This document shows positions 1,981 to 35,532 of a stretch of DNA of 64,000 nucleotides, piece after piece (position 1 is the stretch's first letter; every line of letters begins with the position of its first letter). The translations under genes were made by a program, and so were the position numbers. This DNA is from Callorhinchus milii (lineage: Eukaryota), in contig NW_024704742.1 in NCBI RefSeq assembly GCF_018977255.1, positions 100,194,001-100,258,000 on the forward strand. The letters run 5' to 3'. The notes below the pieces were generated by a model that worked only from the letters and a program-made list of their open reading frames with translations, made no database searches and was not told the origin of the DNA.

Positions 1981-1984
1981 TTCA

Positions 1985-9100: not shown

Positions 9101-9170
9101 CTCCAGATCCCAGCTGTTTGTAGAATCGATATTCCAGGTGAAGTTGTGGTGCTCTGGACTTCATAGGTTC
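9101..9170 (-). CDS. CSNK1G3: CK1 gamma exon 4 (70 nt): [23 protein letters not shown]
   Basis: Acceptor tttttcatag| and donor GAG|gtaaag. From memory, EPMK and LGSG match paralog G3, whereas G1 and G2 have EPIK. Confidence 0.95.
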
Positions 9171-10389
9171 CTATGAAAAATAGCAAGGAGGGAGGGTTCA
9201 ATGCAGAGAATTTTGTTCCCATGCTAAGAATCAAGATTTTCACAACTACTACTATGGCATTCCTGAAATGAGCAACATATTTATCCACAATTATTCAAAA
9301 GAACCCTGCTGTTCAATTTAAACCTTACAGCACATTATTAACTGAACCATTATTTTTGGGTTCTCAGTTCTCACTTTGTAGGCAATAAATCCAGAGAGGA
9401 TGCTATAAAACATGAAAAATATTACACAAGTAACCTTGACCACAGTGTAGGTCACTCATTTTATGTATATATTTATTGGGCAGCATAATTTTGGAACAGT
9501 CAGAAGCAACTGTAATGAGGACAGATGTTTCACAGAGTGGATTACATATTATATGTTAATGTGTCTATAAACAGAATTAAAGTCCTCAGTGGGGATTAGC
9601 ATAGAGTCTCTCACACTTTGAATATAACAGTAAGCTGCCACCTGATCCTCCTGCACTCCTCATGTGCTGGTGCTCAATAGCATGCTCGAAACATGACCCA
9701 TCCGGATATGAAATTGCCAAATCATATTTTGGTTCTGAACTATCTAAACTACAGAGTTAAATAAGAATTTGGATCTTCTCCCCACAAGGTCAACTTAGTG
9801 AGTGAGAACCAGACTTATCTGTAAGCTGTGAAACCACCAGAGCAAGGCAATTAACATTCATCTCTGTTCAAAACAGTGCAGAGCTAACATCACAGCCATA
9901 GTTTCCTAGCTCTTACAGCACACTGAGGTTTTGAAAGCCACAGTAAAGGTGACATTCTAATTGAAAACAGCAACGCCAGGAATAAACTGCAAGACAAACA
10001 TGCTGCATCTATTACCAGACTTGAGCATTTCATGCTATTAGTATTTCATACTCCGAGCCACACTTGAGAGTGAGCTCCCTTGAAGCAATAACTTCCCAGC
10101 TCATAACTGAGCACCACTTCAACAAAACTGGGAGCATTTAGTATGCGGCTCCAGGCATCTTCATTTAAAGCATAAGTTTGAATCATGGCCATCAGACTGC
10201 ACATCACTCACTAACCTAACGGCCCCTTAAAGTTCCCGAGCTACAACACTTCAGTAGAATTGGGTGAAGCTGTAATTCAAGGACAGGTTATCCCCTGCAG
10301 TTTGTTCAAGCTGCATCTCTCTGCTAATAATGTTCATATTCATTTGAAATTTTCATCAGCTCCAGATAACGATCAGCAGAGGTCATTTT

Positions 10390-11080
10390 AAGTTTGCTTT
10401 CGCTTCCCGCCTCCCTCAAAGAAACTGACACCTTGCTGGGTATAGTTCCATGGACGGCACAAGTGCACACAGGAGCTCATTATTCATGCCTGAGTCTCAA
10501 TAAGGAATGCTGACAGTCTTTGAGGCTCTCGCTATCCAGAGATCCCTTAAAGCAGGAGTTGCCTGCACGTGTGCAACTGCATCCAGCAGATAACGATCAG
10601 GATCCCTCATTTCCCAACCTCAGATGGTGAAGCTAATTTAATTCCATTAGCTCTTTCCCAGCTGAGAGAACCAAGCATAGACCAAGCAGTCAGCCTGGTT
10701 CGACTGTACCAATTGCATAAATGATGAGTCAGATGTTACAAAAAGCTACCAAATGGAAGGCTGCACCATTCAAATTCAAAACATTGTGGACTCAATCTGT
10801 GGTCCAGTTAACTGGTCTCGCCAAGTCAACAGGAAAGTACTAAAGTGGTCGAAGCGCTCCCTGATCTAAGGATGATTTTTTAAGCAATTTTAATAAAAAA
10901 AGGGAAAGATCAGACAGACACCCAAGGATTCCTGCACTGTCCAACAGTGATCACAGTGACCACTGCTGGAGAGTGCAGCTGTGTGGATATTGAGCGGTCA
11001 AATGATCACCTGGGTAATGAGATAGGGGAACCATACCCAGGACACATCAGCACATTCAGGAAGGGAGGGAAATTATCGGT
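10390..11080. repeat. Two oppositely oriented copies of an ancient unclassified SINE-like repeat (10390-10730 -, 10780-11080 +)
   Basis: Degenerate shared motifs (cagtgaccactgctgga..gtgtggata; ggaaccatacccag..ttcagga) with copies at ~12600-12910, 36060-36460 and 53060-53520. Confidence 0.5.
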
Positions 11081-11618
11081 TAATTTCTCTAGCACCTGGG
11101 TAATCCATATCATTCAGACAGTTTTGTTTGTAGGGAGGGAACTCCCCTCTACCCCAAAACAAAAATCCTCTGGACCGACCCAGTAGTGTAGAGGTAAGAG
11201 GAGGCGATTTATTAGCAAGAATCTACACGATAGTTAGGGATATTTCGCAGCTCGAAACTGAGAGAAAAAAAGTTTGACAATGAAAAATATTTTGTCCACC
11301 CAGGAGAAATACTCTCCATGAAACAAGAATAAGGAGAATAGCACAAACATGGATATTGAAACAGATTCCTTGAACTTAGCCCACTTTTCATCTCGGACAA
11401 CTACCATACAATACACACCTAGACAAACAGAACACCAGGTCATGAGAAATGAAACCACGACAGGTTAATATTTAATTACTGCAGCATACATTACTGCTAA
11501 GGGTTATTGGAAGATATTCTGAGACATTCCAATAGAAATATTGGTATAGTTTAAGCTGACATGGACATTTATAATAGCATTAGTAACACCCAACAGAAAC
11601 AATAATTGATAGACTTAC

Positions 11619-11659
11619 CAGCTTAATTGCCACGTATTCATTTGTGTACAAATTTTTAC
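11619..11659 (-). CDS. CSNK1G3: CK1 gamma exon 3 (41 nt): (G)KNLYTNEYVAIKL, with the catalytic VAIK lysine
   Basis: Acceptor ttttttcaag| and donor CTG|gtaagt. Phase 1 in, phase 0 out, in frame with exon 2. Too short for the ORF track. Confidence 0.95.
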
Positions 11660-11805
11660 CTTGAAAAAAAGAGAGATTGAACAGAATTAGAGATCAGGGA
11701 TTCTCGATTGGTGACAGAACAAACAATTGTGAATACAATTATTTTCCAGGAAAGTTAAAAACTGCATGTTACACAATATCTGTGTAACGTGCAGTTTATA
11801 TGTGC

Positions 11806-12111
11806 AGTCCTGTAGCTCAGTGGTTAGAGCACTCGCCTCTCAAGCGAGAGTCTTGGGTTCGATTCCCGGCAGGGCGAAACTTTGGGCAAGTTTCCTTACT
11901 CCACACGCCTAATAATAATCCCTCAAAAAAAAATAATAAATTGGTTACTTCAATCCACAACTGTCTGTGGGACACTGCTGTGCGCAATCTGGCTGCCGCC
12001 TTTCACCCACAAATATACAGTCAATTCACTTTACAGTATATTCTGTGAAGAGCTTTGAGACGTCTAGAAGACGTGAAAAGCGCTATATCAAATGCAAGGA
12101 TTATTATTATT
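11806..12111 (+). mobile_element. Young tRNA-derived SINE, short variant, full length
   Basis: Head gtcctgtagctcagtggttagagc..ggttcgattccc, Deu 3' core, TAGAA-loop tail and (TTA)n. Lies ~150 bp upstream of the exon 3 acceptor. Confidence 0.9.
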
Positions 12112-12599
12112 AACTTTCCTTCCACTACAACGAAAGGCACAATGATTCTGACACACACTGCCATTTTCATCCTCCTAAACCCCTAAGGATTCCTGTTGCC
12201 ATCAAATAAGTGCACACATTTTATAAAATATTAACTGTCTGATTTAACCCATTTATAAATGACACTATTATTGCAAGCAATTAAAATAGAATGAAAAATG
12301 GAGACCTATAGAAGATTGTCTTGCTGTTTTTCCTCCAGCCTTCCCCTCAATGTTTATTCTGCAATGATTCCATGAGAAACTGCCATTTAAAAAAAAACAA
12401 AATAATCCTTGCATTTGATATCGGATCTTTCACATTAGAAAGGACATGGCAAAGCGCTTCACAGAATTCACTATGAAATTTTGTAGGCAATCACAACAGT
12501 CATTTGCACATAGCAATGTCATGACTGTTCTTCAATTGAAAACAGAGTTGAAAAATAGAGACATACAAGCTTAAAGCAAAATAAGCTTGCTTTGCTGTT

Positions 12600-12910
12600 T
12601 TCACTTGGGTGAAGAGGCCTTCTAATACTTCACCTAAGTGCTCATTCTTTATGCATGAGCTTAGATATCAGTACCAGTACACTATTTGATGGACGAGAAT
12701 AATAATAAAGCCAGATTCTATCTGGAGCCAGCATTAGCACCTCCCAACAGCGGTTGCTGGATAACAATCAGGAGACAAACCTAGCCAAGAAACACAGGGT
12801 CCATTTGTAACACCCCTACTGCTGCCCAAACTCAAACCAACTAACTCAACATTGCCAGTTCTGTGCAGCTTTATTTTACCTCCAGCCAATTGTTTTACCA
12901 ACTGAGCTCT
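12600..12910 (-). repeat. Ancient unclassified SINE-like repeat
   Basis: Degenerate similarity to 10390-10730. Confidence 0.4.
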
Positions 12911-15814
12911 GATCAAATTTATTACAGAGCATAATGTTTTTTGTTCTGCTTCAAACAAACGATGCAGGCTTGGAAGGTACACTGATTTCTCTCAGGATTA
13001 CTTTAGGAGGATGTTTACTGTGGTTGGTTGGCGTTCACAGGACAGAAAGTGGGGCTGAATCCAAAATAGAGCAAATTATATATGATCAAGGAATGGGACT
13101 GTTAGGCTAAATAACATTTATACATGCTCCTTATAGTTAGTTATCACCGTTTCTCATTACAAATTCCTTCAACTTACTGCATATAACCAATTTAGCATTC
13201 TTTTTTTTGGTCAGCCGAGTGTCTGACACATGCTCATGCTCAAAGAGTATCCAAACCAAGCTGAGATTTCCATGCATCCCACCTCCACGTTGAAATCCCA
13301 GAGATAGATTGTTGGAATGCAGATCAACAAAGCTGCCAACGGGGGCCTGGGAGGCACGCACAAGGCAGTTCAGAAACCTACTATAACATTTAACCATTGA
13401 GCTTTTACATAAACATAATCCAAATATCCTAGACACATGCCTCTAACAACACTTCAAAATATCACACCAAGGGTTAGGGTGTACTGAACGGTTGCCAATC
13501 CCAATTCTTGCAAGGCTGTTAGTTTACATAAACAAATTCCTAGGCCTTGCTACATGCCATGGAAATGATCAAGGGCACTCTGTGAAAATCACTTCAGATT
13601 TGCACATCAAACAGCACAAATGTCAATCTTCAAACAGGGCAATAAGGGCTATGTAACGGATGATTCTTTGAAAAAGGTCAGAATCAGTCTTGGATACAAA
13701 TAAAGAGGCTTTCTGCATGTCAGAAAAGAATATTCACAGGATCACAACAGAGGTTAAGATGAAATAGGCCCTTTGGAACATTTGATCTCTTCCTTACAGA
13801 CTCGCAAAATCGCATTTCGCCCACAAAATATACAGTTAATTCACTTTACAGTACATGCTGTACACTGAATATTCTGTATACTGAATATATACAATCATCC
13901 TTTCAAAATACATTATCTCATACTATTCTGCATTAAACTGTATCTGCCATCTTTTTGGTCAATCCACCAGTCTGCCCATGTCCTCCTTCAGTCCTCTTCA
14001 CAATTAGCCACGCTCCCCATCTTCCTGCCATCGACAAATTTTGAATTGGGCTAGCCAAGGTTATTTAAATGGATAAAAGCAATGGTCCCTTCATCAATCC
14101 CTACTGGACACATCTACAGTGGAACCAGCTTCTGATATATGTCTCCTTATAGCACAACTGGGTTGTTCCTGACACTGGATCTGACATTTACTTAGCTAAA
14201 AATCCAATATTGCATGCACTTAGAAGCCATTTGAAAGGCTATGCAGCCTGCTATTTTTCTGCATGAATGTAGCAGGGTTGACCAACAATTGTGCCCCATT
14301 GCAGCTCTGGTCGGGTTTAATGGACGCACTATAATTGGGTTCCAATGTATTTACATCAATATTGCAACACTGCCGCTAGTACCATAGGCCTTAACTTTTT
14401 CTAACCCTCTTCATATACGGCAACAAATCAAACACCTTTTGAAATGAGACCTATATCGTAAATGCAAATATCCTTTTGGTTTATTTAATGCACTGTGGTT
14501 CAGAAGATAAACAGGTATTAAAGTGTTTAAATATATATATTTTGGATCCATTGAAAGTGGATAAAATGCCTGGGTAGCCATGCAGTCAATGTCTCCTATG
14601 TGTCGACAACCCTTTGAGCTTGGATCAGGGTCAAGAATTTTATTGAAGAAGGTGGTTACACAGCTGCTTTCTGCCACATTGAATGCGTGCCTTCAACTTA
14701 AAATTCTGACAGATTCAGATTTTGCATTTTTTCCAATAAGCTAGACAAATCTTTATTCATTTTCCTGGTGATGCAACAAGAAGGGTAACAATGTGACAAA
14801 CATTTTGGTTCTGTAACTGGTTTCCTAATTTCTCAAGTGATTAATAACATCCCAAATTAGTAATATGAAAAAGTGTCAATATTTCTTGACTAAAATACAA
14901 TTGTGTGAATGTTGGCTCATTTGCTACAGGAAACTTATCCACATGCTCCAATCTATGAAACAAGAACGGCATGGCTGGATTTGTTGGAAGCAATAAAGTG
15001 CTTCATATTCCAGGATGAGTAATCAGCTGACTACACTGGACATTGCATCCTGTTCAATTCTGAAGATATCAGGAAGATTAAAGCACACACAGAATGATTC
15101 AGGTTTAAAACACCTTTACTTTTCTCCTGCCTCTTGTATACGTTTGATTCTCACTGAATTATTGTGTTCTCTTTCTGAATAATTTTTCAAAATTCCAAGA
15201 ACATTTAAAAACCAGGCTCTGCAGATTAAGGAGCAGGATGCTTAAAAAAACAATTTATAATTTCAATGGCAATTTCCTACATTAAGAGCTCCAATGCACT
15301 GTTGGTTAAAAAGAACACATTCAAAGAAAGACAAGACATGGTATTCACTCTTTATGCATCTCTCCTGGGCCAGGCGTAGAGCAACAATATCAGATGACAC
15401 CATCTCACCCCTTCACTGGAGAATGTAATATTAGATCATCAATTCTCATGTAAAATGGAATTTTTTTATTTAAAAAGTGGCAGTAATTTCCTACATTAGA
15501 TGAGCAGTGGGTATTCGCTAACTCAATCTAATAAAACATTGCAAGCAGCAATGTAAATCCACCACCATAAATGCGAACGACTATCCACCTTCAAAATTAC
15601 TAGTATCCTCTGGTGGCCATTATTTCAGAAAATGTAACCAAGGTTTACATGTAGAATTTCACACCACTCTGGAATGAATTCAAGAGTGTATCCGAACACT
15701 GGAGCTGGGCAATTGGTATCAATGGTCAACAGCCACCACCAAACCCCCCTATACTACAGTGCATTACACACATTCAGTACGCTCACAGGTAGGGGGGTTA
15801 AAGACGTATATAGA

Positions 15815-16175
15815 GACTTCGAGCTCTGACACTTCAATGCAGTGCTGGGGTTGTCGTCCTTCAGATAGGACGTTAAACTGAGCCCCCAACTCCCTGTCCA
15901 GGTGAATGTTAAAGATACTATGCCACTGTACAAAGAGATAAGGTGTTTCTCCTGGGTGTCCTGGCTAATAATCCTCCAGACAAAAATGTGGTCATTCACC
16001 TCATGGCCTTTTTTGCGACAATGCTGTGGCAAACTGGCTGTCAAGTTTGATGTGATGTGTATTGATATGATATGGTGCCATTTCAAATGCAAGAGATCAC
16101 AGAAATCTCTGTGAAACGCTCTGCAAAGTTTCAGTATGTTAACGTGCCACGATAAATGCAAGGATCATTATTAGT
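15815..16175 (+). mobile_element. Old Deu-domain SINE
   Basis: ccttcagataggacgttaaac..tttctcctgggtgtcctggctaa..ggctgtc, followed by the tail. Confidence 0.7.
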
Positions 16176-17619
16176 CATAGGGCAGTAAGTGGACTAATAA
16201 TAATTATTATTATTAAAGAACATTTAATACAACACTCAGGCATCTTAAAAGAAAACACGCAACAACTCATTCCAGCAAATGGACTCCATTTGACTTCTTT
16301 CATCTCCAGACAAAAGTTTTTCCCTTCCCACAAAACTCAAATTAATAAACTCAGGAATGCTTATCTAAGTTTGAAAGCGACATTGTACATGTTCATAGTT
16401 CCAGAATCTCGGGAGGCACCAAGATCCACAAAGCGTTTGATCTTTATCTGTGCTGATCCTTTAACCCTCAATCCTACTCCTAACTACAGCAAATATTCTT
16501 CCAACTTGTTTAACAGGCATTAGTTGGCACAGTATTATCAGCCTTAGCTAGGAATCCCGTCATACATATTCTGGGTTTGGAATGCTTTGCAATCAGATCA
16601 CTAACTAGAGGGTGGTTAATTTTATGCCTATACTCCCACAAAGATAATACACTCTATAAAGTCTGATGGTTGCCTTTAGTACTGCAAGCAGATTCCTTTT
16701 GGCATTTTCAGATTTGTCCCCACTCTTAGCTGTAATTTGGAGCTGCATACACATTTAATGCAAATGGAATGGAAAGAGGAGGAGGGGGGGGAGGAAGAGA
16801 TGGGAATTCTGGTAAGTTACAATTATCCTAACTGACTGATAATTCCTGAAAACGTCAGTCATGCAAATAGAGGTACAACATTAAAGCTACGTCCCTTTTT
16901 AGTTCTTGCTTAGCTCTCCTAATATTGACAACCTGAAAATTAAAACCTTCACAACTGAGTTGGGGGGAAAGGTGTGGAAGCTTGAATGTGGTAATCAAAG
17001 AGAGACGTTTTTAAAGGTGGTTTTGAGGGCAAGGAAAGAAGGCACAAGGACTGTGCAAAGAATTTCAGATGGCAACAGTATTACGGCTGCAGGTTTGTCC
17101 TCCTGATCTCCATCCGATGACTTGTAAAAGCTTGAGCAGATGTCAGATGAGGAAAGGACTGAGCTCGCCTAAGTGGTACCGTTATTCATCTCCACCCCAC
17201 AGGTCAAATATCATACCAATACTCACTGTCCATGCTGACACAAGAGCACTGGACGACTGAAATTTCCGTGGAACTGCAACAACACAAGAATGTTACCAAG
17301 AGACGAGGGAAAAATGTGTATAAAGCTCCAAAAAGTGATTTTTGGTGTTTCAAGAATGAGGAAGAGATTCTCTCCTAATCTAATTGAACGGATTTTGGTC
17401 ATGCATTTTTCACATGTACATTATAGAGAAACGCAACATACTAAATTCTGCATTTTAATTCTCCACAAAGCATGCTTAGCTGCTAGCAACAATATCCAAA
17501 CACTATAAGCAGTATTTGAAGCAAAAATATACACTAGAAATCCACAGCAGGTCCATCTGCACTGAAAGAGGAAGCTAACCTTAACTGGAGCCCTTCATTT
17601 AAATAATTTTTTCATTTGG

Positions 17620-17985
17620 TTTGTATAGTGATCGTGTATATTTATAGGCAACCAAAGCGGCCAATTTGTGCAGAGCAACGTCCCACAAACAGCCATGAAG
17701 TGAATGATCAATTTTATCCGGGGGATTTTGGCAAGAAGCCTGGGAGAAACTCTCCTCTCTTTTTGAATCCTTAACATCCACCGAAACTTGGTTTAACACA
17801 TCATGCAAAGGACGGTACCTCCAACAACTTAGTACTTCCTCACAGGTGCTTTGAATTGTCAGCCTAGATCATGTGAGTATGAAGTGTCAGTGTGGGATTG
17901 AAACCCACAACCTTGTGATTCAGAGGCAATAACAACAAATTACATTTGTATAAGAGTGCACCTAACTGAGCCAGACTGACACACA
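17620..17985 (-). mobile_element. Old Deu-domain SINE
   Basis: cccacaaacagccatgaagtgaatgatcaa..ggagaaactc..acccacaacctt..actgagcca on the plus strand. Confidence 0.75.
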
Positions 17986-18934
17986 ATTGATTTGTGTGAT
18001 GGATGGTGGAAGCCCCTTACACTAGACAGACAAAGAAAGTCAAGAGAAAAAAATTGTTTAGATGTTTCTCTATAAAATCAACATTCACACAATTGGAATG
18101 CTTTGAGGGGTGAACTTTCAAGCATTGCGCTCCTTTGACATTTGGCAGGCATTATAATTAATAATAATAATAATACTTGCATTTGATAAAGTGCCTTATC
18201 ACATCTTCGAGACGTCTCAAAGTGTTTCACAGAATATACTTTAAAGTGATTTGACTATATTTTGTGGGCGACACATTAAGTAAATTGTACTGGTGATACT
18301 TCCATCAAAATTTATAAAAGCTACCAATGAATACAGAGTATTCCTTTTATTTGACGTCTAGCCTACAACGAGAATAAAACGTGGACCCTTTTGGAATCCA
18401 TTACTTGGTCTATGCCAAGTTCTGGAACTTGCTGCGGAGTTAGCGAGTGCTCACAAAATCACAAGTTTGGTCTGAATGAAGAAGGCCCTTCAGTCCATCT
18501 GATTTTATCCTTCCAGGACACCCACCCTACCATCCCCCATTATTGCACCAAGCTGCTTTTTAAATAAGTCCAGTGTCCTAGCCTCTACCTGGCAACCTTT
18601 TCCGTTGGTGATTAGCCTCTGTAAAAGAAAAACTCTTGGTATCAGTTCTGAAATTGCCCTTTACAACTCTAAACCTACGTTTACTGACTTGATGTTGCCT
18701 AAAGTGTTCAGGAAGTTTACTTTTTCAATCCCATTGAATTTAATACAGTATCACTGGCAAAAACAAGTGGAAGCAAGTTAAAAAAAATATTCCACCAGTG
18801 AAAATAATTTGGAGTACGCCATTTAACACATATTATTTCACATTGTATCCTGTTTTATGCCATACCAGTAGGGAGCACATGTATACCTCAAAACCTTTTA
18901 AAACTACATTGTTTTAAGAGGTGGGCAAAATAAT

Positions 18935-19230
18935 ATTCCTTGAATTTGAAAAAACACCTCATCACGTCAACAAAATGGCTCAAAACACTTCACAGGACTC
19001 ACTGTAAACCATCACTATACAGCAATGTCCCATAAACAGCCATGAAATGAATAACCAATATTTTAATCTGGAAAATTAAACAGGCAGATTGGATCTCAGA
19101 TTAATGACAAAGCAGTGCTCCCACAACAAGGGGTGTCATCCTAGATTAGGAGTTCAAACTCCCAATTTGGAGCTTAAACCCACAACCTTCTGATTCAGAC
19201 GAGATGCCTAACAACTGAGCCAGGCCTACA
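18935..19230 (-). mobile_element. Old Deu-domain SINE, internally deleted
   Basis: cagcaatgtcccataaacagccatgaaatg..aacccacaaccttctgattcag..actgagccagg. Confidence 0.6.
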
Positions 19231-19365
19231 AAGAATGAGATTCTTAGGTCAATGCTGATTCAACAACCTGCTTAAGAAGGAAATATTTACATCTTGGAAT
19301 TGCTAATTTCAGTTGACCAGCCACAACTACGTGCAGGGCAGAGGGAATGTTGGTTGACAAGTTAG

Positions 19366-19708
19366 ATCCTGTAGCTTACAGGTTAGAGCACTCATCTCGC
19401 AAGTGAGCGACCTGGGTTTGATTCCCGGCCAGGGCGAAACATTGGCCAAGATTCTTTACTCCACGTGCCTCTGTTTGCCAAGCAGTAAGTAGGAACCCGG
19501 TTGTTAGTCGATTGGTGAATCACTTTTCTGGGGGCAATAATTCCTTCAAAAAAAATTATTTGGGCACTCAATCCATAACTGCTTGTGGAACATGCTGTGC
19601 GCAATTGGCTGCCGCGTTTCAATTCACTTTACAGTATATTCTGTGAAGCGCTTGGAGACTTCTTGAAGACGTGATAAGACGCTATATCAAATCAAGGATT
19701 ATTATTAT
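19366..19708 (+). mobile_element. Young tRNA-derived SINE, long variant
   Basis: Same head and tail as the short variant, plus an extra segment ctgttt..agcagtaagtaggaacccggttgttagtcgattgg. Confidence 0.85.
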
Positions 19709-22104
19709 GTTTAAGTAAATGTATATGAATCCGCAATCCCAGGGCGAGCTTCTCCACAATTACTGAAGAATGAGAACTTCTGAAATCATAATTGGAGTCA
19801 GCTGCTGCCACAAAACAGCTTCAAAGGCAATTCCTTCCACTCCCCAACTAAAGACATAGGAATGGGCACTGTACATTCATAACATCACAAGATCAGTTTG
19901 GATGAAAAAGGCCTTCACCTCATTTGATCTCATCCTTCCAGAACTTTTTTTAAAATGTGTCCAATGTCCTGGCCTGAACCATCCCTTTCTGAACCTGTTC
20001 CAATAGTGAATTATACCTCCAGGTAAAGTTATAACATTATTTCAGTGCACTGTTTGCTGTGGCGCTGCTCTCAGTGTGCATTGCTACAGGAAGGCACAAA
20101 CAGAACCTCATTTCTTTTATCCCTGCAATAGAGAAAAAAGAAATGAGAAGTGTGTTCCGAGCTCCTCTGATGCATATACTGGCCAACCAAGAGTTACATG
20201 ATCTATGGCACATGAACATCATCTCTCGGCAGTCTGGTTCCTGAGCCATGCGAGTCCACACACTCAAAGGCACAGTTGATGACTGACCAGACATCAGTCT
20301 CATCAGCAGTACTTGGAAGGCCAGACCGGTCAATGAGGGCATGAATTCTTTCTGCCAGGCTCCCAGAAACCCTGCAATCCAAATCTTAATTTATAGGGTG
20401 GCCCTAGCTGGACAAGCAATGGAAAACTATGAGGTGTTAGCTGATTGAACTCCAGCAGTTTCCCATCACATATTCTTGGTATCCCCAAGCCTTGGCTTTC
20501 GCCAACCTGCACCCAAAACTCTCCACAACTCTTTTAGCGGGGACCATCTCTCCAGTGAGAGTGTGTGCATTCCATTCCAGACACAGAGACATTTCCATGT
20601 GTAAGTGTATACACATGTGGAACACAATCTCATTTAAGCACTCTGAGACCCTGTCCTGCGTGGAGGGCGCTATTTAAGTGCAAGTTGTTGTTTGGATATT
20701 CTTAAGCATAGTGCTGGGTTTTACATTGTAAGACATTCAGTTGACAAAGCAAAAATATAGTGGTTAGGTTAGTTGACACACAGAAAAACTAGGGAGAGAT
20801 TGATGAGATAATTTTTGGTACGGTTTAGGGAAGGTAGGGAAGAAGAGAACAGCTTATGAAGAGGGTACATATGCTCTGAACCCTGGAATTGTCTTTTAGC
20901 CTAAACAACAACTTACATTTATTTATACAGGGCTTTCATGCCAGGAGGAAGTCTCAAAGTTCTTCAAACAAACAATTAGATAAAGCACAATGCTGAAAGC
21001 GCAGACATGAATCATAGGATGTAAAGGAAGGGGATTTTCTTGTAGATCTCAATTAAAGGTTTCTGTGCCATTCAAGTGTCCAGCCCAGAGAAATGTCAAG
21101 GCGTTCAACACTTCATGCCCGACTTGTAGTAAGCTGGGGCAGGGTGGTGGTGGGGAGAAAAGAGGAGAATGCTTTTTATACCTCTTCCAAAAGAGCAACT
21201 TTGGCAACACAACACTAAGTTTGTGCATCGAGAACACCCTACGGCATACAGGAGAGTAGTGTGATTGAACGCTGGGAAAGTAGGGAACAAGCTAGTTCCC
21301 TGCCCTCAGTGAGATTTCCGAGCTGTCCCAATTTTGTTGAATACTGTATTCTACATTTCCTTTCCTGTAGTAACTAGTGCCGCATCATCTATCATCATTA
21401 TAACCATAGTTACCTTGCATTGAACCCACACTACTAAATTACAAAACGGCTGGGCCTGATGAATTTGTCACACTTCAATGAATATCGAGTTTTGATAGTA
21501 CTTATTTTTGTTGCTTGAAAGTCCTGCCCTCGTTGATTAAATTGCATTTACGTAAATCATCAGAGCATATGACGGAAATGCCAAGCAGACACAGTGCCTT
21601 TATCCACACACTGATCTTTAAACATTAAAAAAAATTCTGATGGAAATTTGCAACTGCAACTTGCCAAGCAAAGTGCTGCAACAAGGGGAAGACTATTCTT
21701 CAAGCTTGGAATTGAAAAAGATATAGCCTCCATACTGAAGGATAGTTTCCTTTTATAATGTTAGGTTATCCATCATCTCACCTCCTCCTCCCTCTAACAT
21801 CCAATCACCAACAATGTTAAAACATGGCACAATGTCTCTTTCATTCAGTGGAGTGGAAGAACATTAAGAGCTTCCTTTAGTTTTAAAATTCCCAAGGTTT
21901 CTTCTTAATTCAGAGGAGATTACATAATACAGAGTGGTAAATCTGCTATCTTTCAGCGTGAACTGCACCACACTTGATTAATGATCTTTACCTCTTATTC
22001 CCATCCTGGGTGTAGTTAGCTCATGTACTCCTCTTCCTCACCCATCCCATGGAACAGTACAAGCAATGGCTTGGACTCACTTTGAGCTTTCAATGTCATA
22101 TCAA

Positions 22105-23257: not shown

Positions 23258-23711
23258 TAATAATAAGCCATGCATTTGATATAGCGCAAACTATTGATAA
23301 TACGCAAAACAATTAAACCCTATTACAAAACCGTACTCTGAGGGAAGGCTGGAGAATGCCAAGGGTTTGTAGACCCAAGCCAGGAGCTACCAACTTGGAG
23401 CTGCCCTCCTTAGGCTGGTCAACAGGATTCTCTCAGAGACATGTATTCTGTGTTCCCGCATGCAATTGTGGTTCTGATATACCACTGATATAGGGCCTTA
23501 TCATGTATTCAAGATGTCTCAAAGTGCTTCACAGAATATACTGTAAAGTGAATTGACCGTATATCTTGTGAGTGAAATGCAGCAGCCAATAGCGCACAGC
23601 AGTGTCCCACAAACAGTTGTGGATTGAAGTGCCCAATTTATTATTAATATTTTTTTGAAGGGATTATTACCCCCAGAAAAACAATTCACCGATCAACTAA
23701 CTACCGGGTTC
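23258..23711 (-). mobile_element. Long-variant SINE, 5'-truncated, with a 187-bp foreign insert in its tail
   Basis: SINE body 23485-23711, insert 23288-23474, terminal tail 23258-23287. Confidence 0.75.
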
Positions 23712-26626
23712 ATAAACTATATATTATAAAATCGGGATAAAGAGAAAAAAAATTTAAGACTTCAGACGCACACTATTCAAAAACAAAGTTCCACCCATAA
23801 CACTTCGATGCGTCCATTAGTACCAGCAATTTCCTCTCTTGTGTCATGATCTATAAACAAAGTATATTTACATTCCCACAAAGCCTGTCCCATATAATTT
23901 GCCTATAAAGATACAATCATACCACTTTACAACATATTCTGTGACGTGCTTTAAGACATCTTGATGAGATAAGGCACTATCAAATGCAAAGTTTACTATT
24001 GTATTATAACTCCATATGAGCACCAAACGTGGACAGCTTGGTTTCTGTCCCCATATCTATACGATTTGTCAATAGTATCATAGTATCAATAGCGACAGCC
24101 CAGGGCCACCTAACTCCTTCCACACCAATCCAACTCCATTGCTTCCCATGAATTTGTCAATTTTAAATCCTCTTGAGAAGTTTCCATCCCCCACCCCCAT
24201 CCCAACCCATTCCATGCCTTCCAACCTTGTGGCATAAGCTGTTGTGTGGCACAGAATAAAAAGTGTTGCTAAATCTAAATGCACAATGTCCATCAAGTTC
24301 CCTTATCCACTCCACATTTTTTCTTGAAAGAATGCTTCAAATTAAACTGCACAAAAACATGTAAACTTTTTTGTTACATTTGTTTTTTTGTTACTTTTGA
24401 CATGTTACATTTTATATTGCATTTGACAAAGTGGTAAAAGACAAGCTTTAAAGCAAAGCAGCCGCTTGAGTGTTTCCAAAAATAAATAAAATAATAATAA
24501 TCATCCGTGCATTTGATATAGTACCTTATCACGCCTTTGAGGCGTCTTTGAGGCATTTCACAAAGTATACTGTAAAGTGAATTGACTATATTTTGTGGGG
24601 CTGTAAATCTACTGGCCAAACAATTATTCTACTGTTTTGTTTACGAGGAACATGATTCTTCTCCAACAGTGAAATGGAAAGGCAAGTTGAAGACATTCAA
24701 TACAGAATTAGAGAGAGAAAAAAATCTGCTATCCACAGTGCTTTCATATCCACAATGGGGCCGATCCCAATTAGGGCAAACGTGGTGCAATCTATTGTGG
24801 AAGAATCTTTGTACTAAACCAGTCTTGGAATTGTTGCAGGTTCTGTATCCAAACTCAGAAGTAAATCATTCAAGAAGTCTTCAACAGATTCTCAATGTTT
24901 CCATTCCGCTTTTCAGATTTTTTTTACTGTACACAAAGAAATGAAAGTCAAAAAAAACTACTGTAAAGTACAGAGCCCTTGAAAAGCATCCTGTAATCAC
25001 AGTGGAATGAACAAAGGGAAGTTAACTGACAGGAAACTCAGAGAGGTTTAACTCGATCGCACCAAAGCTTTGATTGTTTAGAATACGTTTTTGAAAACAA
25101 CGGCTGATCTGCAGAGTGGGAGTTCTCCTCTACCATCAGCAGACAACTTTGGCAGCAGTCAGTCAGTCTACTTTGTATTTTCTGATCAGATCCACAACCA
25201 AATTTGCAGGCAAAAGCACAAGGGGTTGTGAACAATAGGCCTAAACAGAGCCGCTTCCCAAATGTAACATAAAGCTACATGAAAGGGTTTGTTCCACCGC
25301 GTAGCCAACACTTCCCCACATCCCATTGTTCATTTCCTCCTCTGCAACTGCTAATACCAAGAGTCAAACATGTGCCGACCTATTCACTTCCAATTTTCTC
25401 AGGGTTACAGAATTTAAAACACCAATGAGTTTCACTAAACACTAATCCAGGAGGGATCACAATAAATTGAACTGGAAAATCAAAACAAAAAAAGTATTGA
25501 CACTTGCAGATGAATCTAAATTGGTGGCGGGGGAGAAGAAAGAAAAATGATTTGGCTAATCTGCAGGTTGGATGTTTTGCTTGTTTCAAAACAGTTGAAA
25601 CAAGTTTCTCCCTTCTAATGTTGGTGACCAGGACTCAACACTTCCTACTGTACCTCAGACATAGCCTCATCTCAGACCTGCTCTCTGTGGGTTCAGATCT
25701 TCAACATCTTATTGGTGAGCATTGGGGCATTGGGAACACTGCACAGTGCTTTCTTTACACCATCCAATATTTGAAGCACAAACTTTGATGAGAAAGTGCA
25801 GGCGAGGCGACTTGAAGTATACTTTAAAAACAATTAGGTGACCTCAGCTGGGGCAGCAGGTGGGGCGCCAAACTTGCCCCAGCGGATGTTAAGCAACGAC
25901 CGGATCAGCTTCGGGCGGATCACTCCCATGGTCCAATTACCTGACTGTATGTACAGGCAACTCTCAAACATCAACAGCCATTTGGGTAAGATACCATGTC
26001 GTAGCCCAGAAGAAAAAAAGAGTCAAATCTACCATACAAATAGGACAAAATTGGCATCCAACCAAATACTGCATAATTCCTCTTCACATCTGCAAACATA
26101 AGATAAGAGCCAAGTCGTTCACTTCCAACAGGGTTACAGGATTTAAGCCTAGCATGTCATTATGTAATTCAAGTTCCTCGGAGGACACATCTGCTTACCT
26201 AATTCCAGGGAGTATTAGGTGCAGGTTGGCAAAAGCCAAGACTTGGAGTTCTCAGACTGCATGTTGGGCTACTTTTGGGAGTTTAACCAGATAAAAGTGC
26301 ATAACTTGCCATTGATATCGCTGTCTGGCAAGCTTCCCACTGCTTGTCTAGTAATTGGGGCTTTTGTCCACTGCCCACTGACACTGTTCCCACCCCTTTA
26401 AAAATAGTCATCATCACTCCTATCCTTAAAAACCCCTCCCTAGACCCATTCCTGCTCTCAAACTACCCATCAGCTGCCTCAGCCCTTCCGTCTACTACTC
26501 CCTCCCCATCTCACCCTAGCCCTTACCCATCCCTCCCTCCACCCCTTCGAACCTGTCTCCCATTCCTTTCCCATCACCACTATAAACCGCATGAAACCGA
26601 CCACCTGCACCCTCGACCCCATCCTT

Positions 26627-28720
26627 ACAACAACAACAACAACAAGATTCCATTTATAGAGCGCCTTTCACGTCAGGAGGACGTCCCAAGGCACTGCACA
26701 GTTGGGTCATGACCCGAGCAGGGGGGAAATGGTCAGGGTGAGGGGAGGGAAGGGAGGGAGAGAGGAGGGGGGAAATGGTCAGGGTGAGGGGAGGGAAGGG
26801 AGGGAGCGAGGAGGGGAAGAGAGTCGAGAGGGGAGCTGAAGGCTCGGTCAAAGAGAAAGGTTTTGAGACCGGCCTTGAAGGAGGAAAGGGAGGAAGCGGC
26901 GAAGGCACTGGGGGATGGAGTTCCAGAGCCTGGGGCTGAGAGGCTGAAGGCCCGACCACCGATGGTAGGGCGGTTGGGGCGGGGGACGTGGAGCAGACCG
27001 GAGCCAGAGGAACGGAGGGTACGGGCAGGTAGGTAGGGGGATAGTAGGTTGGAGAGGTAGGAGGGAGCAAGGCCGTGAATGGCCTTGTAGGTGAGGATGA
27101 GGATCTTGAAATCAATCCTCTGGGGGATGGGGAGCCAGTGGAGGCGAGCGAGGGTGGGAGTGATGTGGTCCCGAAGCCTGGTGCGGGACAGTACACGAGC
27201 TGCAGAGTTCTGAATGACCTGCAGCTTGTGGAGGGAGGTGGCGGGAAGGCCGGCGAGGAGAGAGTTCCCATAGTCCAGCCTTGAGGTGACAAAGGCGTGA
27301 ACCAGGGTTTCAGCAGCGTGAGGGGTGAGGTAGTGCCGTAATCTGGCGATGTTCCGGAGGTGATGGAAGGCGGTGCCAGTTGTGGTGCGGATGTGAGGGA
27401 GAAAGGACAGCTCAGGGTCGAACAAAACGCCGAGGTTCCTGACTGGCTTTGAGAGGTGGAGAGTGCAGCCTTGGATGCTGATGGTGTCAGCGCCTGAGGT
27501 GCGGAGGCGCTGACGTGAGCCAATCAGGAGGGCCTCGGTTTTTCGCACGTTGAGCTGAAGAAAGTTGTCTCTCGTCCAGGACTCGATGTCGGACAGGCAG
27601 CTGTCAGGACATCGGTGGTCGTGGAGTTGAGAGTAGAGGAGGAAAGGTAGAGTTGGGTGTCATCCGCATACATGTGGAAGTTAACCCATGTCTGCGGATG
27701 ATGTCACCGAGGGGGAGCATATAGAGGGTGAAGAGGAGGGGACCGAGGACAGAGCCCTGAGGGACACCACATGAGACAGTACGGGGGGTGGAGGAGAAGC
27801 CATTCGTCGAGACAAAGTGAAGACGGTGAGAAAGGTACGACCTAAACCATTCAAGGACAGTGCCTTGAAGGTTGAGGTGGGAGGACAAGCGGTGGAGTAG
27901 GATAGCGTGGTCGACCGTATCGAATGCTGCCGATAGGTCGAGGAGGACGAGGAGACAGAGGGAGCCCTGGTCACAGATGGTCAGGATATCATTGGTGACC
28001 TTGACCAGGGCAGTTTCTGTGCTATGGGCAGCACGGAAACCTGACTGAAGGGGTTCGAAAAGAGAATGGGTGGAAAGGAAAGAGCGCAGTTGGGAGGCGA
28101 CAACTCTTTCCAAGACCTTGGAGAGAAAGGGGAGGTTGGAGATGGGCCGGTAGCTTGATAGCTGCGACGCATCAAGGGAGGGTTGGCGGGGGGGACGGAG
28201 GAGTCGGGTTGTGGTGGAAAACAGTAGCCTGGGGTTGTTCTTCGCCTCCAGGATTATCCTGGAGTAGAAGGACGACTTGGCCGAGGCTAGAGTGGAGCGG
28301 TAAATTTTGAGGAGGTCCAGCCAGATTTGTCGGTGGACCATTAGGCCAGATTTGACACAGGTGCGTTCAGCGGCCCGCACCTGGCTTTTCAGTGAGCGGA
28401 GGTGGGTGGTGTACCAGGGGGAGGAGCGGGAGTAGGAGACAGTGCGGGAAGTGATGGGGGCAAGAGTATCGAGTGTGGAGGAGAGGGTATTGTGGAGGAG
28501 GGAGAGAGGAGAAGAGGGTTCGGTGAGGGTTGAAGGCCAGAGGGAGAGGAGTTCAGAGGACTCCAAGGCATCGGTTAGGGATTGTGGGGGAAACTTCATC
28601 CAAGGGCGGTAGAAGATGGTGGTGGGTCTGGTGGAGGTGGGGAGGGGGGTGGAGGTGGTGAAGGAGATGAAGTAGTGGTCAGAGATGGCCTTGTCGGTAA
28701 TAGTGACATCCGAGACACCC
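26627..28720 (-). mobile_element. Young L2 LINE, 5'-truncated ORF2 with reverse transcriptase (frameshifted)
   Basis: Endonuclease-end motif [52 protein letters not shown] (27659-27670), LHWLP. CpG-rich with a (TTG)n tail. Confidence 0.95.
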
Positions 28721-30172
28721 CTCTCCTTACCTCCCAGCTCCACTTCCTTGCACCTCTACTCACAGACCTCATAAATCTCTCCCTGTAAACTGGTACCGTT
28801 CGCACCCCTTTAAAAAACGCCGTCATCACTGTTATGCTTAAAAAATCCTCCCTGGACCCATCTTTACTCTCAAACTACCGCCCCCATTTCCAACCTCGCT
28901 TTCCTCTCCACGGTCCTGGAATGAATCGTTGCTTCCCAGCTTCACTCCTTCCACTCCCGCCACTTCCTTCACGAACCCCTCCAATCAGGTTTCCATACTA
29001 CCCACAGCATAGAAAAACCCCCTGGTCAAAGTGACAAATGACTTTCTGTCCATCTGCGACCAGGGCTCCCTCTGCCTCTTCGTCCTCCTTGACCTCGACA
29101 CCGTTTACCACTCTATCCTCATCCACCGCCTCTCCTCTCACCTCAGCCTTCACAGTCCTGTTCGTGAATGGTTCAGATCGTGCCTCTCACACCACCTCCA
29201 CTTCATCTCCACAAACGGTTTCTCCTCTAGCCCCCGCACCATCTTGTGCGGTGTTCCTCAGGGTTCTGTCCTTGGTCCCTTCCTCTTCAATATCTATATG
29301 CTCCCTCTTGGTGATATCATCTGCAGACATGGGGTCAACTTCCACATGTATGCAGACAACATCCAACTGTACCTCTCTGCCTCCACCCTCGACTCCAGGA
29401 CCACTGCTGTCCTGACAGAATGTCTGTCAGACATGAAGTCCTGGATGAGAGCTAACCTTCTTCAGCTGAACATCGACAAGACTGAGGCCCTCCTGATTTG
29501 CTCCTGTCAGCGCCTCCTCACCTCAGGGGCTGACAGCATCACCATCCATGGATGCACACTCCACCTTGCTAAGCCAGTCCGGAACCGATCTGCCTTCGCC
29601 CACCTCTGCAACATCGCCCGGCTCCGCCATTTTCTCACACCGCAGGCCGCCGAAGCCCTAATACACGCATTCATAACATTGACTATGCAAACTCATTGCT
29701 TGTCAGCCTCCCTAACTCCTCCCTCCATAGGCTGCAGATCATCCAGAACTCTGCAGCCCATGACCTCTCCCGCACCAGGCTTCGTGACCCTATCACCCCA
29801 TCCTTGCCCGACTCACTCAGAGGATACAGTTCAAGATCCCGATCCTCACCTTCTAACCCCCACTCCTTCCACTTAGCGGCCTCAGCCTGCTTCACATCCC
29901 CCACCTCACCCACCCCACCATTCTGCCACTCTGCCCCCACCCTTGGGAACTCCATCCTGCAGTCCCTGCACCTCGCCCCTCCCTTGCCTCCTTCAAGATC
30001 CATCTCAAGACCCTCCTCTTCAACCGTGCTTTTGATCACCCTGCTTCACCCCATGCCCTTCACCCTCCCCAATCCCAACCCCCAACTGGGGTCCAAAACA
30101 CTGACTGTCCAGCACCTTCAGACGTCCTCCCGACGTGAAAGGCGCTATACAAATGTAATTTTGTTGTTGTTT
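28715..30172 (+). mobile_element. L2 LINE, 5'-truncated and decayed, head-to-head with the previous copy
   Basis: [31 protein letters not shown]. Tail gacgtcctcccgacgtgaaaggcgc..ttgttgttg. Confidence 0.92.
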
Positions 30173-30639
30173 TGCTTGAAAGACTATCAGGAGCCAAGTG
30201 GGAAGAATAATAGCCCCAAGTGACTGCTACCTACTTCCTTTCAAGAGGGATAAGCTCCATGAGTTAAATGTCAACTCTTATACGGATCTTGGAGTTGGAA
30301 TACACATTTTGAATAAAATCCCAAATTTGTCCACGTATTCTCATGGCTTCAAGCTTCATCATGAGGCACTAGGTCAGGGTTGTTGAAATCTATGAATGCA
30401 AAGTAAATGAGTTTCCATAGAGTCTTAACACAATATTCTGTGAACTAATATAGAGCTACAACCTGCCCCACAGACCCCTCATGGGAACGGAATCCTTGTT
30501 CCTTTTTGATTAAACCACAAGTCGCCAATGCATCCAAATGCAGTGACTATTCATACACAGCACCACTTTAAGAGCCATTGAAATCAGTGAGATTCCTCGG
30601 CAGTTCTCAATCTCTATCTGCGTGTGGATACACACATAA

Positions 30640-30935
30640 ATGTTGGGCAAGTTTCCTTCCTCCACACTCCTCGGTTTACCTAGCCATAAGTAGGAACCCA
30701 GTTGTTAGTCGATTGGCGGAACACTTTTTCAAGGGTAATAATTCCTTCAAAAAAATAATAATAATAAATTGGTCACTTTAATCCACATCTGTTTGTGGGA
30801 TACTGCTGGGCGCAGTTGGCTGCCTCATTTCGCCCACAAGATGCAGTCAATTCACTTTACAGTATATTCTGTGAAGCGCATTGAGACGTCTTGAAGAAGT
30901 GATAAGGCATTATATCAAATGCAAGGATTATTATT
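30640..30935 (+). mobile_element. Long-variant SINE, 5'-truncated
   Basis: ttgggcaagtttcc..gtaggaacccagttgttagtcgattgg..aaatgcaaggattattatt. Confidence 0.85.
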
Positions 30936-31849
30936 GGAACCACAATTGCATGCTGGAACACAGAATATGTGCCTCTGAGAGAAGTCTGTTGACCAGCCTT
31001 AGGAGGGCAGCTCCAAGTTGGTGGTTCCTGGCATGGATCAACAAACCCTTGGCATTCTCCAGCCCTCCCTCAGAATATGGTTTTATAATACGGTTTCATT
31101 GTTTTGCATATTATCAATAGTTTACACATTGCACCTTCTCAAAAATGCAACATTCAGGGGGCTGCATGGAGCAAAACTGGTGTAACGACATAACATACAC
31201 CTGTATGCCACTCAGAAGGAGAAAAAGAAATAGATGGAGTGACACTCCAAAACACACTACGTACCAGGTTATAAAGGAAACCCTGACAAAAGCACGCAAA
31301 TTCACAAAATGAATCATTCTAAGATCTTGAACATGCTAGGGAACTCAGAATGTTACATGTCCTAGCGAACAAAAAAGAAAGCCTATGCCGACTAAATCAG
31401 TAGAAAAAGGAAGCATACAAAAGCACAATATTGGTAACTGATTAACATCAAGTAACCGAGCAACTATCAAACCACAGAAGAGAACCTTGTAAACTATATC
31501 TGGCTCCAAATATCAGGTTAAACCTTCAACCCATTTAGAATGTACAACAACAAACTGTACTATTCGGATATTTTTAAGTCAGTTTTTAGTTCAAAATGTA
31601 AATTACTCAGGATTTTCTGTAATATTCTAATATCAGTGTGGAACTGAATGTCAAACATGCTCTAACCTATAGACACGGCAATGTTTCTCATCATGTTTAT
31701 CAGCAAATTTGGCCAAACAAATCTTGAAATTCTGCATTTCAAGATTCTTTCAAAACTGTATCATCCATAGTGTTTACAAGAAGCACGCAGCTAATTGTGG
31801 GATGACAAGGGCAAATCAAGTTGCAGAGATCTGGCTGTATCCCATGTAA

Positions 31850-34270
31850 GATTAGAGCTAAATAGACTTTACCAGAGTATAGAATTCATGGAAGGTCTGG
31901 GGAATGTTTAAAAGAAGGGGGAGAGGAGAACTAATCAACGGGAAAGGATACAATACGATGGTGGAGTATTTTGCAAAACACCTGACCTCAAAACTTGGAG
32001 GACTGCATTTAAATGCAAACCAAAGAAGGTTGGAAGAAGAAAACGTAATCACGAGAGCTTAAATTGCACATAGATTGGGAGAAGAATGACACCTGAAGTA
32101 GAGAAGGAAACATATATACTGAACTGAGTTCAGGATATTTCTCTAAAACAGTAGGTCCTCAAATCAGCAGGGGAGCAGCTGATACTTAATTCTGTAATGA
32201 GTAAACCAGAAATAGTTAGCAATCTGGTGGTAAGAGAGCACCTTGGGAATAGAGACCGTAAGATTAAATTCAACATCAGACTTGAAAGGGAAAAAGTAGG
32301 TTCATAATCTAAGCCTTTGAACTTAATAAGGGCAAATTTGAAGAGCCGAGGAAGGAATTGACGTACACTAAAAAATTGTAAGTTGGCCGATAAACTGACA
32401 AATAGTGGAATCTATTCAACAAACAGGTTAGTGGATTATCAAATTACACCCCTGAAATAAATATATAGAAAATGTATTAATCTCTCAATGCTCTCTGGAT
32501 TTGGAAGTACTGCCCATGGATTGGAAGGTAGCAAACGCAACGCCGTTACTTAAGAAGTGAGGAAGGAATAAACCAAGGCCAGTGAGTTAGGGAAAGAGAA
32601 ATGTAGCACTTTGGTAAATATGGGAAACTCGGCATGGTTTTTGAAAAGTAGGTCATGTCCAACCACCAAAGAGATAAAACTTTCATAAGCACTAGGATTG
32701 AGGATCTATGGATGTAAATTACATAGAGTTTTAGAATACATTTGAAATGGATTATTATTGACAAGGTGCCACATTGTCCTACTGACATGAAGTATAAATG
32801 TAAATTTGTATTGTGAACTAAAATTAAAATTCACAGAATCAGAAAGTTTATCGTGCCAAAGGATTCAGCCCATCAAATCTATGTTGTTGCTACTTATCCA
32901 ATGGAGTCTTCAACTCTTATGCCATTCCCCTGCGCTATCCCCATTCTGTTTAATATAACAGGGACGTCTTCCCGACGTGAAAGGTGCTACATAAATACAA
33001 TCTGTTGTTGTTATTACAACTTTTCCTCGAGTTTTGATACATTTCCCTCTTAAATGCTACTGTGGCCTTAGCCTCGATAACCATATTATAACAATGTCTT
33101 CATAAAAACATTTCTTACAATTTTTTTTCCCGTCTGGTAACAACCTTCAATTTATACTCTCTTGTTGCCAATTACAAATCAACGCAAGCAGTCTCTCTCA
33201 CTTTCAATTTTTCAATCAAATCCTAGTGACGTGGATAGGAAATTGTTTGTAAGGTAAGAGATATTTTCTGATTGACTTGACAATGACCAGTGCTCTCCCA
33301 CAGGGAATGCTGAGCTTTTTATTCTGTATATTAATGAACTGTGGATATAGGAGTAGACGACAGACGAGCAGGATTGTGTTTTGGTAAAAGGGGATAGGCA
33401 ATTGGAAGAGGAAAAAGCTACCAGCACAAGTGGTGAAACAACTATGAGAATTTCTTCAGAAATAAACTAGATAAGCTCTCGGAAATTGAAAGGTTATAAA
33501 AAAAGCGATAGATGTGACAAAGGGATCTTTTAGGAACATGGATACACGAACAGTGAACTTCTAACTGAAACCACTACTACGTTACTATATGCCAAGTTAC
33601 TGTAAATGACACTCAGCTGAAATTAGAGAGCAGGAAAATTCAGAGATAAATAGATTAAATGAGTGGTTGGCGACAATGGGAAATGGAATCAAACGTAGCA
33701 AAGTATGTGTGATTTTGAACTTTAAATATAGGAATGGCAGATGGGAATACTTTACGAATGAAGCACTGGGAATGGGGATAAATGAAGCAAGTGTTTTCGG
33801 GGCTGCTGGCGTTCAGTTGTTAAAAGCACTTTACTGAAAGAAATCTAATTGTCGAAAGGAGTTATGGGTTTTGACACGAGGTCTAGATTTTAAAAACAAG
33901 GAAATACTACTGCAGCCATACAGACTACAAATCCAACTTCATTTAAAATGCTCAATTTAGTTGGCGCAGTTTAGGAAGGATATACTGGCATGAGTGACCA
34001 AATTGTTACTTGGGATGAAGGGACTTAACTGCCTGATGAATTTAAAATAATAAAGGGAATTGACATGGTAGACAGAGTGACAATTCCTTTGAGTGGGGAT
34101 ACCCTGAATGACGGAACATAATCGTAAAATTAAAGTCAAGCCAGTTAAATGCAATCAGTGAAACCAGGAAACATTTCTTCACACAAAGCATTGCAAGAAA
34201 TATAAAATGTACTGAAAATATACTGTCCCAGATGCCAGAAATGCAATCAAATGCTAGATTTAAAAGGGAG
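31850..34270 (+). mobile_element. Highly decayed CR1-type LINE fragments with nested pieces
   Basis: Remnants of CR1 ORF2: gagcaccttgggaatagagacc (HLG.SD), gattggaaggtagcaaacgcaacgccgtta (DWKVAN.TP), tttcttcacacaaag (FFTQ). Confidence 0.55.
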
Positions 34271-35110
34271 AATTATCCGATTCCAGTCCCTTTATTTCTC
34301 AACTTAAAAAAAAGCACTCACAAACCACTTCACTGGGAAACTGAAAACTGAATATTCACATATTGTCATGTCTTTCTCACCCCAGAGTAATCTAAGTATT
34401 TCGGCAGCTCTCTTGATGTCACACACCATCACTTTTAAAGTTTTAATCGAAGATGTTAAAGTCACCATCAAAACTGTCTCAAGATTTTAATAATTTCTGC
34501 TAATTTGAAAGAGGGGGAAATAATTGCAAAAAAACAAAGCATTTAAGCAATCAGCCATGAAAAGGTTGCACCAATAGTAAAAGTATTTTTGAAATTAGAA
34601 TTTTTAGTGGCATTCGGTGCCCATTTGAGCCGTCTCAACAAGGTGACAAGGTGCTATATAAAAAGCAAGGATTATTATTAGGAAGAAATAGAATCCTATG
34701 CACAAAATCCCTCTATTACACCAACAATATGCATAGCCGTAATCTCAAAGGATCACCCTCCCCTGACCAAAAACAAGACCTGAGCCTATTTCGCTCATCT
34801 TTTCAGACCTCACCTCTATGCTTAGTCAACACAGGCCTGCTTTATGTTAAAAATTCAGACGCTAGAAAATGGGAAACCCAATTGTTTTGGGCAGCTTTAA
34901 TTGTTTCACAACCAGCTGAGCCTCAATTGCAATTCCAATATGTTAAAGGAATGTGAAAGTCTTCAGAAGATCTGAAAAGCTACAAATATAAGTGATTTTA
35001 CAACTTCAACGAATATAAACGCATTTTCTTTGGAAGCATCTCGGAAAGAGAGCAGCTCGGAAAACGACCATCTCAGAAAACATTGTCACCAAAGTATAAA
35101 TGTGTCTTAC

Positions 35111-35267
35111 CTAATCTAAGTTCTCCAAAATTTCCACACCCTATCTTTTTCCCAACTCTGAAGTTGGGTCCAACCATTAAAACGCCAGAATTGTGGGCAC
35201 TTCGTCCACCGCTCCTTGGCACTCTGGACCTTTCCTCTATTTTGTCTTTATCTTTCGTTTTCTCCAT
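35111..35267 (-). CDS. CSNK1G3: Casein kinase 1 gamma, first coding segment (coding part of exon 2)
   Basis: Translates [52 protein letters not shown](G), the CK1-gamma glycine-rich loop. Strong Kozak context attATGg. Ends at a phase-1 donor TAG|gtaaga. The KDKDK N-terminus resembles paralog G3. Confidence 0.95.
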
Positions 35268-35532
35268 AATGAGTCCCTGCTTGTGGCAATTCTCTGTGTA
35301 TACGCGGTTGTTCAGTTTCAGACCGTATAGTTCCAGAGCGGAAGCATTATCTGGAGCAAATTCAGCACAGCAGCTACAGTTGTTGAGTCACAGGCGTTTA
35401 GCAGAGTTTTCAAAAAACATTTGTTTCATCCCATTCGTAAAAGCTTCTTCGGTAGCGACAACAATAATGAACAAACACCACCATTTGTACAAGCTGGTCG
35501 AACCACGTTACGTGCCTTCAATTGACGAAGTT
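35268..35532 (-). other. CSNK1G3: 5' UTR part of CSNK1G3 exon 2 (whole exon 35111-35532, 422 nt)
   Basis: Strong acceptor ttttttttt-c-ttttttag| just before 35532. Contains several upstream ATGs. Confidence 0.8.

Follow-up and report, generated by a model that had tools for sequence, protein, structure and literature searches.

Exon layout of the mammalian circular RNA circCSNK1G3 is retained in the CSNK1G3 gene of a cartilaginous fish

Introduction

Exons 2-4 of human CSNK1G3 form a circular RNA, circCSNK1G3 (hsa_circ_0001522; PMC8918408, PMC8773908), and this mammalian unit is the one named in the first-pass annotation of the DNA discussed here. The human circle is reported to be abundant in prostate tissue, where the linear form is described as not more abundant (PMC7672590); the mouse circle, circCsnk1g3, is reported to be RNase R-resistant (PMC9700836), and the circle has also been reported in sheep. 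A miR-181 seed match is the mechanism that has been proposed in mammals (bioRxiv 2022.04.11.487822), and for mouse there is the claim of a protein product, 'Csnk1g3-85aa' (PMC11805973). We found no report of a non-mammalian circCSNK1G3 in the literature searched. The supplements of the bamboo shark paper (PMC7759564) and of PMC8516420 gave no match, and the circRNA tables of these two studies, apparently outside the searched text, may bear on the question.

Circles built on inverted repeats, such as Alu pairs and Drosophila laccase2, are one described system with which the locus can be compared. Another are the AUG circRNAs of Stagsted et al. 2019, which are reported to be abundant and more conserved than other circles, to lie between long introns, to do without inverted repeats close by and to remain untranslated; the cut-offs given there, which are human values, are 6,500 nt for a long intron and 2,300 nt for repeat-dependent circles (PMC6487579).

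Gene identity and exon unit

The window analysed, a stretch of 64 kb, holds the 5' part of a kinase gene on its minus strand, arranged as follows.

44539..44831, minus strand: exon 1, non-coding, placed by the loose end of a contig from run X2 and the GT donor at 44538
35533..44538, minus strand: intron 1, 9006 nt, from the X2 splice and the coordinates
35111..35532, minus strand: exon 2, 422 nt, with 265 nt of 5'UTR, the start codon at 35267 and the hypothetical back-splice acceptor 35532
11660..35110, minus strand: intron 2, 23451 nt, which holds the gene's strongest inverted pairs
11619..11659, minus strand: exon 3, 41 nt, placed from sequence and frame only
9101..9170, minus strand: exon 4, 70 nt, with the hypothetical back-splice donor 9101
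1..9100, minus strand: visible part of intron 4, at least 9100 nt, the remainder (which may be most of it) lying beyond the window

All 23 residues of the exon 4 peptide agree with human CK1 gamma-3, while gamma-1 agrees at 21 of 22 and gamma-2 is also lower, and the gene is therefore identified as the 5' part of a CSNK1G3 of vertebrate type. The best matches of the exon 2 peptide are likewise to gamma-3, in constructs that extend further at that end. Exon 1 sits in a GC/CpG-rich stretch, with its 3' end fixed and its 5' end at 44831 at least; exon 5 was looked for across the 64-kb window and was not found.

Exons 2, 3 and 4 are all flanked by AG and GT, and their lengths of 422, 41 and 70 nt add up to 533 nt, so that the unit between long introns described in the first-pass annotation agrees with our coordinates, exon ends and sum. 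Its likeness to the human and mouse circles lies in the orthologous gene, the three-exon unit, the start codon in exon 2 and the same donor, the last 10 nt of exon 4 being those of the donor side of the human circle (junction shRNA in PMC8773908, junction amplicon in PMC7672590). The exon unit and both back-splice sites of a circCSNK1G3 orthologue are thus present, the donor by its 10-nt identity and the acceptor 35532 by its linear use. Judged from these comparisons, the cartilaginous fish gene keeps the exon layout that yields a well-known circular RNA in mammals. The junction has been observed in mammals, whereas here it is read from the exon layout, and kinase genes ordinarily keep their exon structure conserved. 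The miR-181 seed match occurs in a human probe target, whereas a search of the 533 nt of exons 2-4 found neither TGAATGT nor GAATGT, confirming what had been noted at first; the closest sequence is a one-mismatch site at 35364.

The unit also has the AUG circRNA layout, with the ATG at 35267 inside it and flanking introns of 9006 nt and at least 9100 nt, both longer than 6,500 nt. It resembles that class in its start-codon exon, its long flanking introns and its inverted repeats that are distal only, whereas the class itself was defined by junction reads in human and mouse and the fish unit is placed beside it by layout. The explanation we prefer, and to which we lend about half of our belief, is that exons 2-4 have this layout and would give a non-coding circle that is largely independent of repeats. 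The long neighbouring introns would be removed slowly, and the exon 4 donor would meanwhile attack the exon 2 acceptor to give a 533-nt circle. Such a circle would be non-coding, the 124-aa frame across its junction being a by-product of the start codon inside, and inverted SINE/LINE pairs would be a background repeat load that at most modulates back-splicing. On this view one tissue or another probably makes the 533-nt circle to some extent, as mammals do its orthologue, with the chances about even.

Some further features of the gene may be mentioned. Exons 3 and 4 together measure 111 nt, so that skipping both preserves the reading frame, and an exon 3-4 circle would carry a stop-free frame. 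Upstream of the start codon an in-frame stretch on the minus strand (35268-35387) runs for 40 codons with neither a stop nor an AUG. Exon 1 contains a short CAG run (44553-44570), where the X2 contig differs at the far end, perhaps by one extra repeat unit, and the promoter region is flanked by long low-complexity tracts, CA-rich and TC-rich, at 43981-44346 and 45928-46129.

An 18-nt element in the 5'UTR

The acceptor-side sequence has diverged from that of the human circle, while an 18-nt element of the 5'UTR (35425..35442, minus strand) is identical, as compared by eye, in the human amplicon of PMC7672590, an identity that chance would be expected to give about 4e-7 times. A count by hand places it 99 nt into exon 2 in the fish and 86 nt into it in human, so that its frame differs from that of the human junction ORF. 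Two upstream AUGs are carried by the element, one of them as start-Gly-stop, and the hypothetical junction ORF also ends inside it (stop codon 35426-35428). One longer upstream frame passes through it.

35410..35484, minus strand: upstream ORF of 24 codons, read from the sequence

With such an arrangement, the translation of CK1 gamma-3 may be under a conserved control of the uORF type; a literature search for CSNK1G3 together with a uORF found no paper.

Splice junctions in sequencing contigs

The sequencing data were assembled contigs. Four of 14 runs were compared with positions 34300-36250; ten of the 14 are RNA by guess and none is recorded as RNA. In the putative RNA run X2 a contig of 719 letters, with a depth of 132, spans exon 2 and then runs on into exon 1, its loose end of 291 letters matching 44541 onward at 29 of the 30 letters displayed. 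In this one run the acceptor 35532 is thus spliced to the donor 44539, from which it follows that exon 1 ends at 44539, that intron 1 measures 9006 nt and that 35532 is a working acceptor. The exon 2 acceptor proposed in the first-pass annotation is therefore the one joined to exon 1, and the proposal passes this one of its own refuting checks.

No exon 4-exon 2 back-splice was found in the contigs of the two runs that cover exon 2 (X1 and X2), contig data being insensitive to such junctions. The back-splice would span 26.4 kb, more than the 20 kb that the comparison with 34300-36250 could bridge, and its only possible signs there were a loose end or a break in a contig. None of the 16 loose ends listed matches exon 4; another 2 loose ends and 574 pieces lie beyond these, and the depth bins at the exon ends are the sum of the listed contigs alone. 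X2 is continuous from exon 1 to exon 2 and X1 from intron 1 through exon 2, and neither X3 nor X4 has a contig on exon 2. The exon 2-3 junction is missing from all four runs and the exon 1-2 junction from X1, and because the same contigs lack junctions that must exist, the absent back-splice carries little weight. The X1 contig, which covers 35107-35906 and leads from intron 1 into exon 2 without the exon 1 junction, could mean that the junction was dropped and that pre-mRNA or DNA supplies the cover; the other reading is that the transcript has an alternative 5' end near 35.9 kb.

The sole splice seen into 35532 is the one from exon 1, which speaks for the alternative that survives best, namely that there is no detectable exon 2-4 circle, the gene being spliced linearly and any back-splicing giving another circle, e.g. 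one of exon 2 alone. Sharing of circles between orthologues is moreover limited, since PMC8516420 reports that circles are shared at only 4.8% of orthologous loci across five mammals and that the shared ones are tied to young species-specific repeats. On the other side stand the mammalian record, with a circle abundant in human and reported in mouse and sheep, the retention of the layout here, and the thousands of circRNAs that sharks are reported to make (4,558 candidates in bamboo shark liver; PMC7759564). We regard this alternative as somewhat unlikely, and certain repeat pairings described below also bear on it.

Repeats flanking and inside the unit

The repeats that had been named on both sides of the unit exist in the orientations claimed for them, as sequence matches and Rfam tRNA-like SINE heads attest. 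Those that matter here, together with an internal copy, are the following.

41027..41204, minus strand: 5'-truncated tRNA-derived SINE at a distance of 5495 nt from the acceptor, the only arm of intron 1 that is substantial
4131..4440, plus strand: intron 4 SINE, full-length and with a tRNA head, at a distance of 4665 nt from the donor and pairing with the 41.0-41.2 kb copy
42188..42533, plus strand: opposite-strand SINE in intron 1, a same-intron competitor (81% over 183 nt)
39905..40260, minus strand: older SINE-like element (putative 'Deu-SINE'), from sequence matches
39232..39645, minus strand: decayed LINE 3' fragment (the L2 of the first-pass annotation), with short matches only to the intron 4 copies
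2570..3160, plus strand: LINE 3' fragment in intron 4, whose best inverted partner lies in intron 2 (26783-27289, 330 bits)
11806..12108, plus strand: full-length tRNA-headed SINE, upstream of the exon 3 acceptor by about 147 nt and the best partner (90%) of the 41.0-41.2 kb copy

Introns were compared by blastn one with another, intron 1 being set against the visible intron 4. These two share 9 inverted matches, with 636 bits in total, and 8 direct ones with 613 bits. The best inverted pair, 41027-41204 with 4256-4436, extends over 182 nt at 88% identity and scores 225 bits, where the best direct match reaches 144, a difference that counts against our preferred explanation. The L2 pair consists of matches of 61 and 80 nt at 75-80% (57 and 55 bits), and the 'Deu' pair of 103 nt at 72% (43 bits), this element having stronger matches in intron 4 in the same orientation (85 and 69 bits). 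The SINE family has 47 matches in the window, on both strands and in introns 1, 2 and 4, which makes an inverted pair near-certain; Rfam gave only five tRNA-like matches, read as SINE heads and including the copies at 4130, 11806 and 42183. Among 20 other pairs of 9-kb tiles the inverted match was equal or better in 5 and the summed score equal or higher in 11, and among 1128 sliding 9-kb pairs, which overlap and are not independent, 50% reach the observed inverted sum, 23% the best score and 98.7% have some inverted match.

The duplex of the 182-nt pair has an energy of -273 kcal/mol, compared with -58 +/- 5 in shuffles. The competing pair within intron 1 (41.1 kb with 42.3 kb), suggested in the first-pass annotation as a possible suppressor, does exist, and yet at -212 kcal/mol it is less stable than the pair across the unit. 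The intron 1 arm pairs as well with the intron 2 copy (-273.6 kcal/mol, 233 bits) as with the intron 4 copy (-273.1 kcal/mol, 225 bits), and it has nearer partners at 1.2 and 10 kb. Pairing with the SINE upstream of exon 3 would favour a circle of exon 2 only and so lends weight to the alternative without an exon 2-4 circle. Inverted pairs of intron 2 within itself reach 618 bits, and pairing across the unit does not rise above background or above such competitors (233, 330 and 618 bits). The SINE at 11806-12108 is also inverted to a copy at 23.5 kb, and no other repeat comes as close to an exon of the unit. Within intron 2, positions 22100-31100 hold dense opposite-strand LINE/SINE fragments with inverted matches up to 1.1 kb, a likely site of double-stranded RNA or editing in the pre-mRNA.

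The arms of the main pair lie 36.6 kb apart and, summed, 10,160 nt from the junction sites, and the nearest weak pair is at about 8.3 kb, so both exceed the human cut-off of about 2,300 nt for this summed distance. The 3.7-3.9 kb adjoining the two splice sites showed no reverse-complement match that exceeds background, and QKI-type motifs numbered 0 and 1 in the proximal kilobases, without enrichment. The inverted repeats are real, but their pairing is no more than chance gives. The view that they single out exons 2-4 could not be sustained, given that direct matches are as many, 5 of 20 tile pairs do equally well or better and partners in intron 2 are equal or stronger. As with Alu pairs and laccase2, inverted related SINEs span the exons; unlike there, the fish pair is distal, not enriched over direct matches and out-competed by the intron 2 copies.

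That pairing of the SINEs at 41027-41204 and 4131-4440 drives the circle, as a non-mammalian stand-in for inverted Alu pairs, was the mechanism first proposed, and we consider it distinctly unlikely. The inverted match is genuine and stronger than the same-intron competitor, and the link between shared circles and young species-specific repeats (PMC8516420) favours a role for a young SINE pair; the same report keeps alive both this mechanism and the alternative of no exon 2-4 circle. Against such a drive, each arm is about 5 kb off its splice site, an inverted pair is to be expected by chance, the sequence close to the splice sites offers no match, and the equal or stronger pairs would favour exon 2-only or exon 3-4 circles.

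The frame across the junction

Recomputed across the join of 9101 and 35532, the open reading frame is as first described, with 89 aa from the native start and a tail of 35 codons (124 aa). A frame of this kind is to be expected of every circle that includes the start codon and has coding sequence at its end, and circles of exon 2 or of exons 2-3 would give 87 and 70 aa, respectively. A tail of 35 codons or longer was obtained in 13.9% of 5000 dinucleotide shuffles (P=0.14). In the human amplicon (PMC7672590), translated by hand, the frame stops after 12 codons as against 35 here, with 3 of the 12 residues identical to the fish tail. A search for the tail among proteins of 73-2000 aa, which is a weak search, returned 4 candidates, none with E<=1. 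The tail is of chance-level length and is not conserved in human, the sole other species compared. The meaning attached to the frame in the first-pass annotation is not borne out, as it follows from the start codon in the circle, its tail length is unexceptional and the human frame differs.

The mouse Csnk1g3-85aa resembles the fish frame in that it, too, is an ORF that uses the native start within a Csnk1g3 circle. It measures 85 aa against 124 aa, and the accessible part of PMC11805973 makes the claim without junction peptide evidence; at 85 aa it is shorter than the 89-aa linear part here and therefore differs from the fish product. That translation of the circle yields a truncated kinase of 124 aa with a function of its own, an N-lobe with a new tail that is e.g. 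dominant-negative, is highly improbable: the frame is open from its native start and the mouse product has been claimed, but the tail is of chance length and differs from human in sequence, length and stop, the mouse ORF cannot be the same product, and class-wide tests are reported to have found no translation (PMC6487579).

Implications

The circle in this gene is predicted from homology, and the case gains nothing from the repeats or from the open reading frame. It is disputed whether function keeps circRNAs conserved or whether they arise repeatedly as by-products of splicing (PMC8516420, PMC6487579). In a far-reaching version, which we think unlikely, the same junction would be used abundantly in cartilaginous fish and mammals, the circle would be as old as the jawed vertebrates in spite of a complete turnover of the flanking repeats, and the 18-nt element would be functional on the circle or on the mRNA. 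Jawed vertebrates are about 450 million years old. If true, a junction shared with a cartilaginous fish, set among other repeats and lacking the miR-181 seed, would offer a useful test of this dispute over a deep evolutionary distance.
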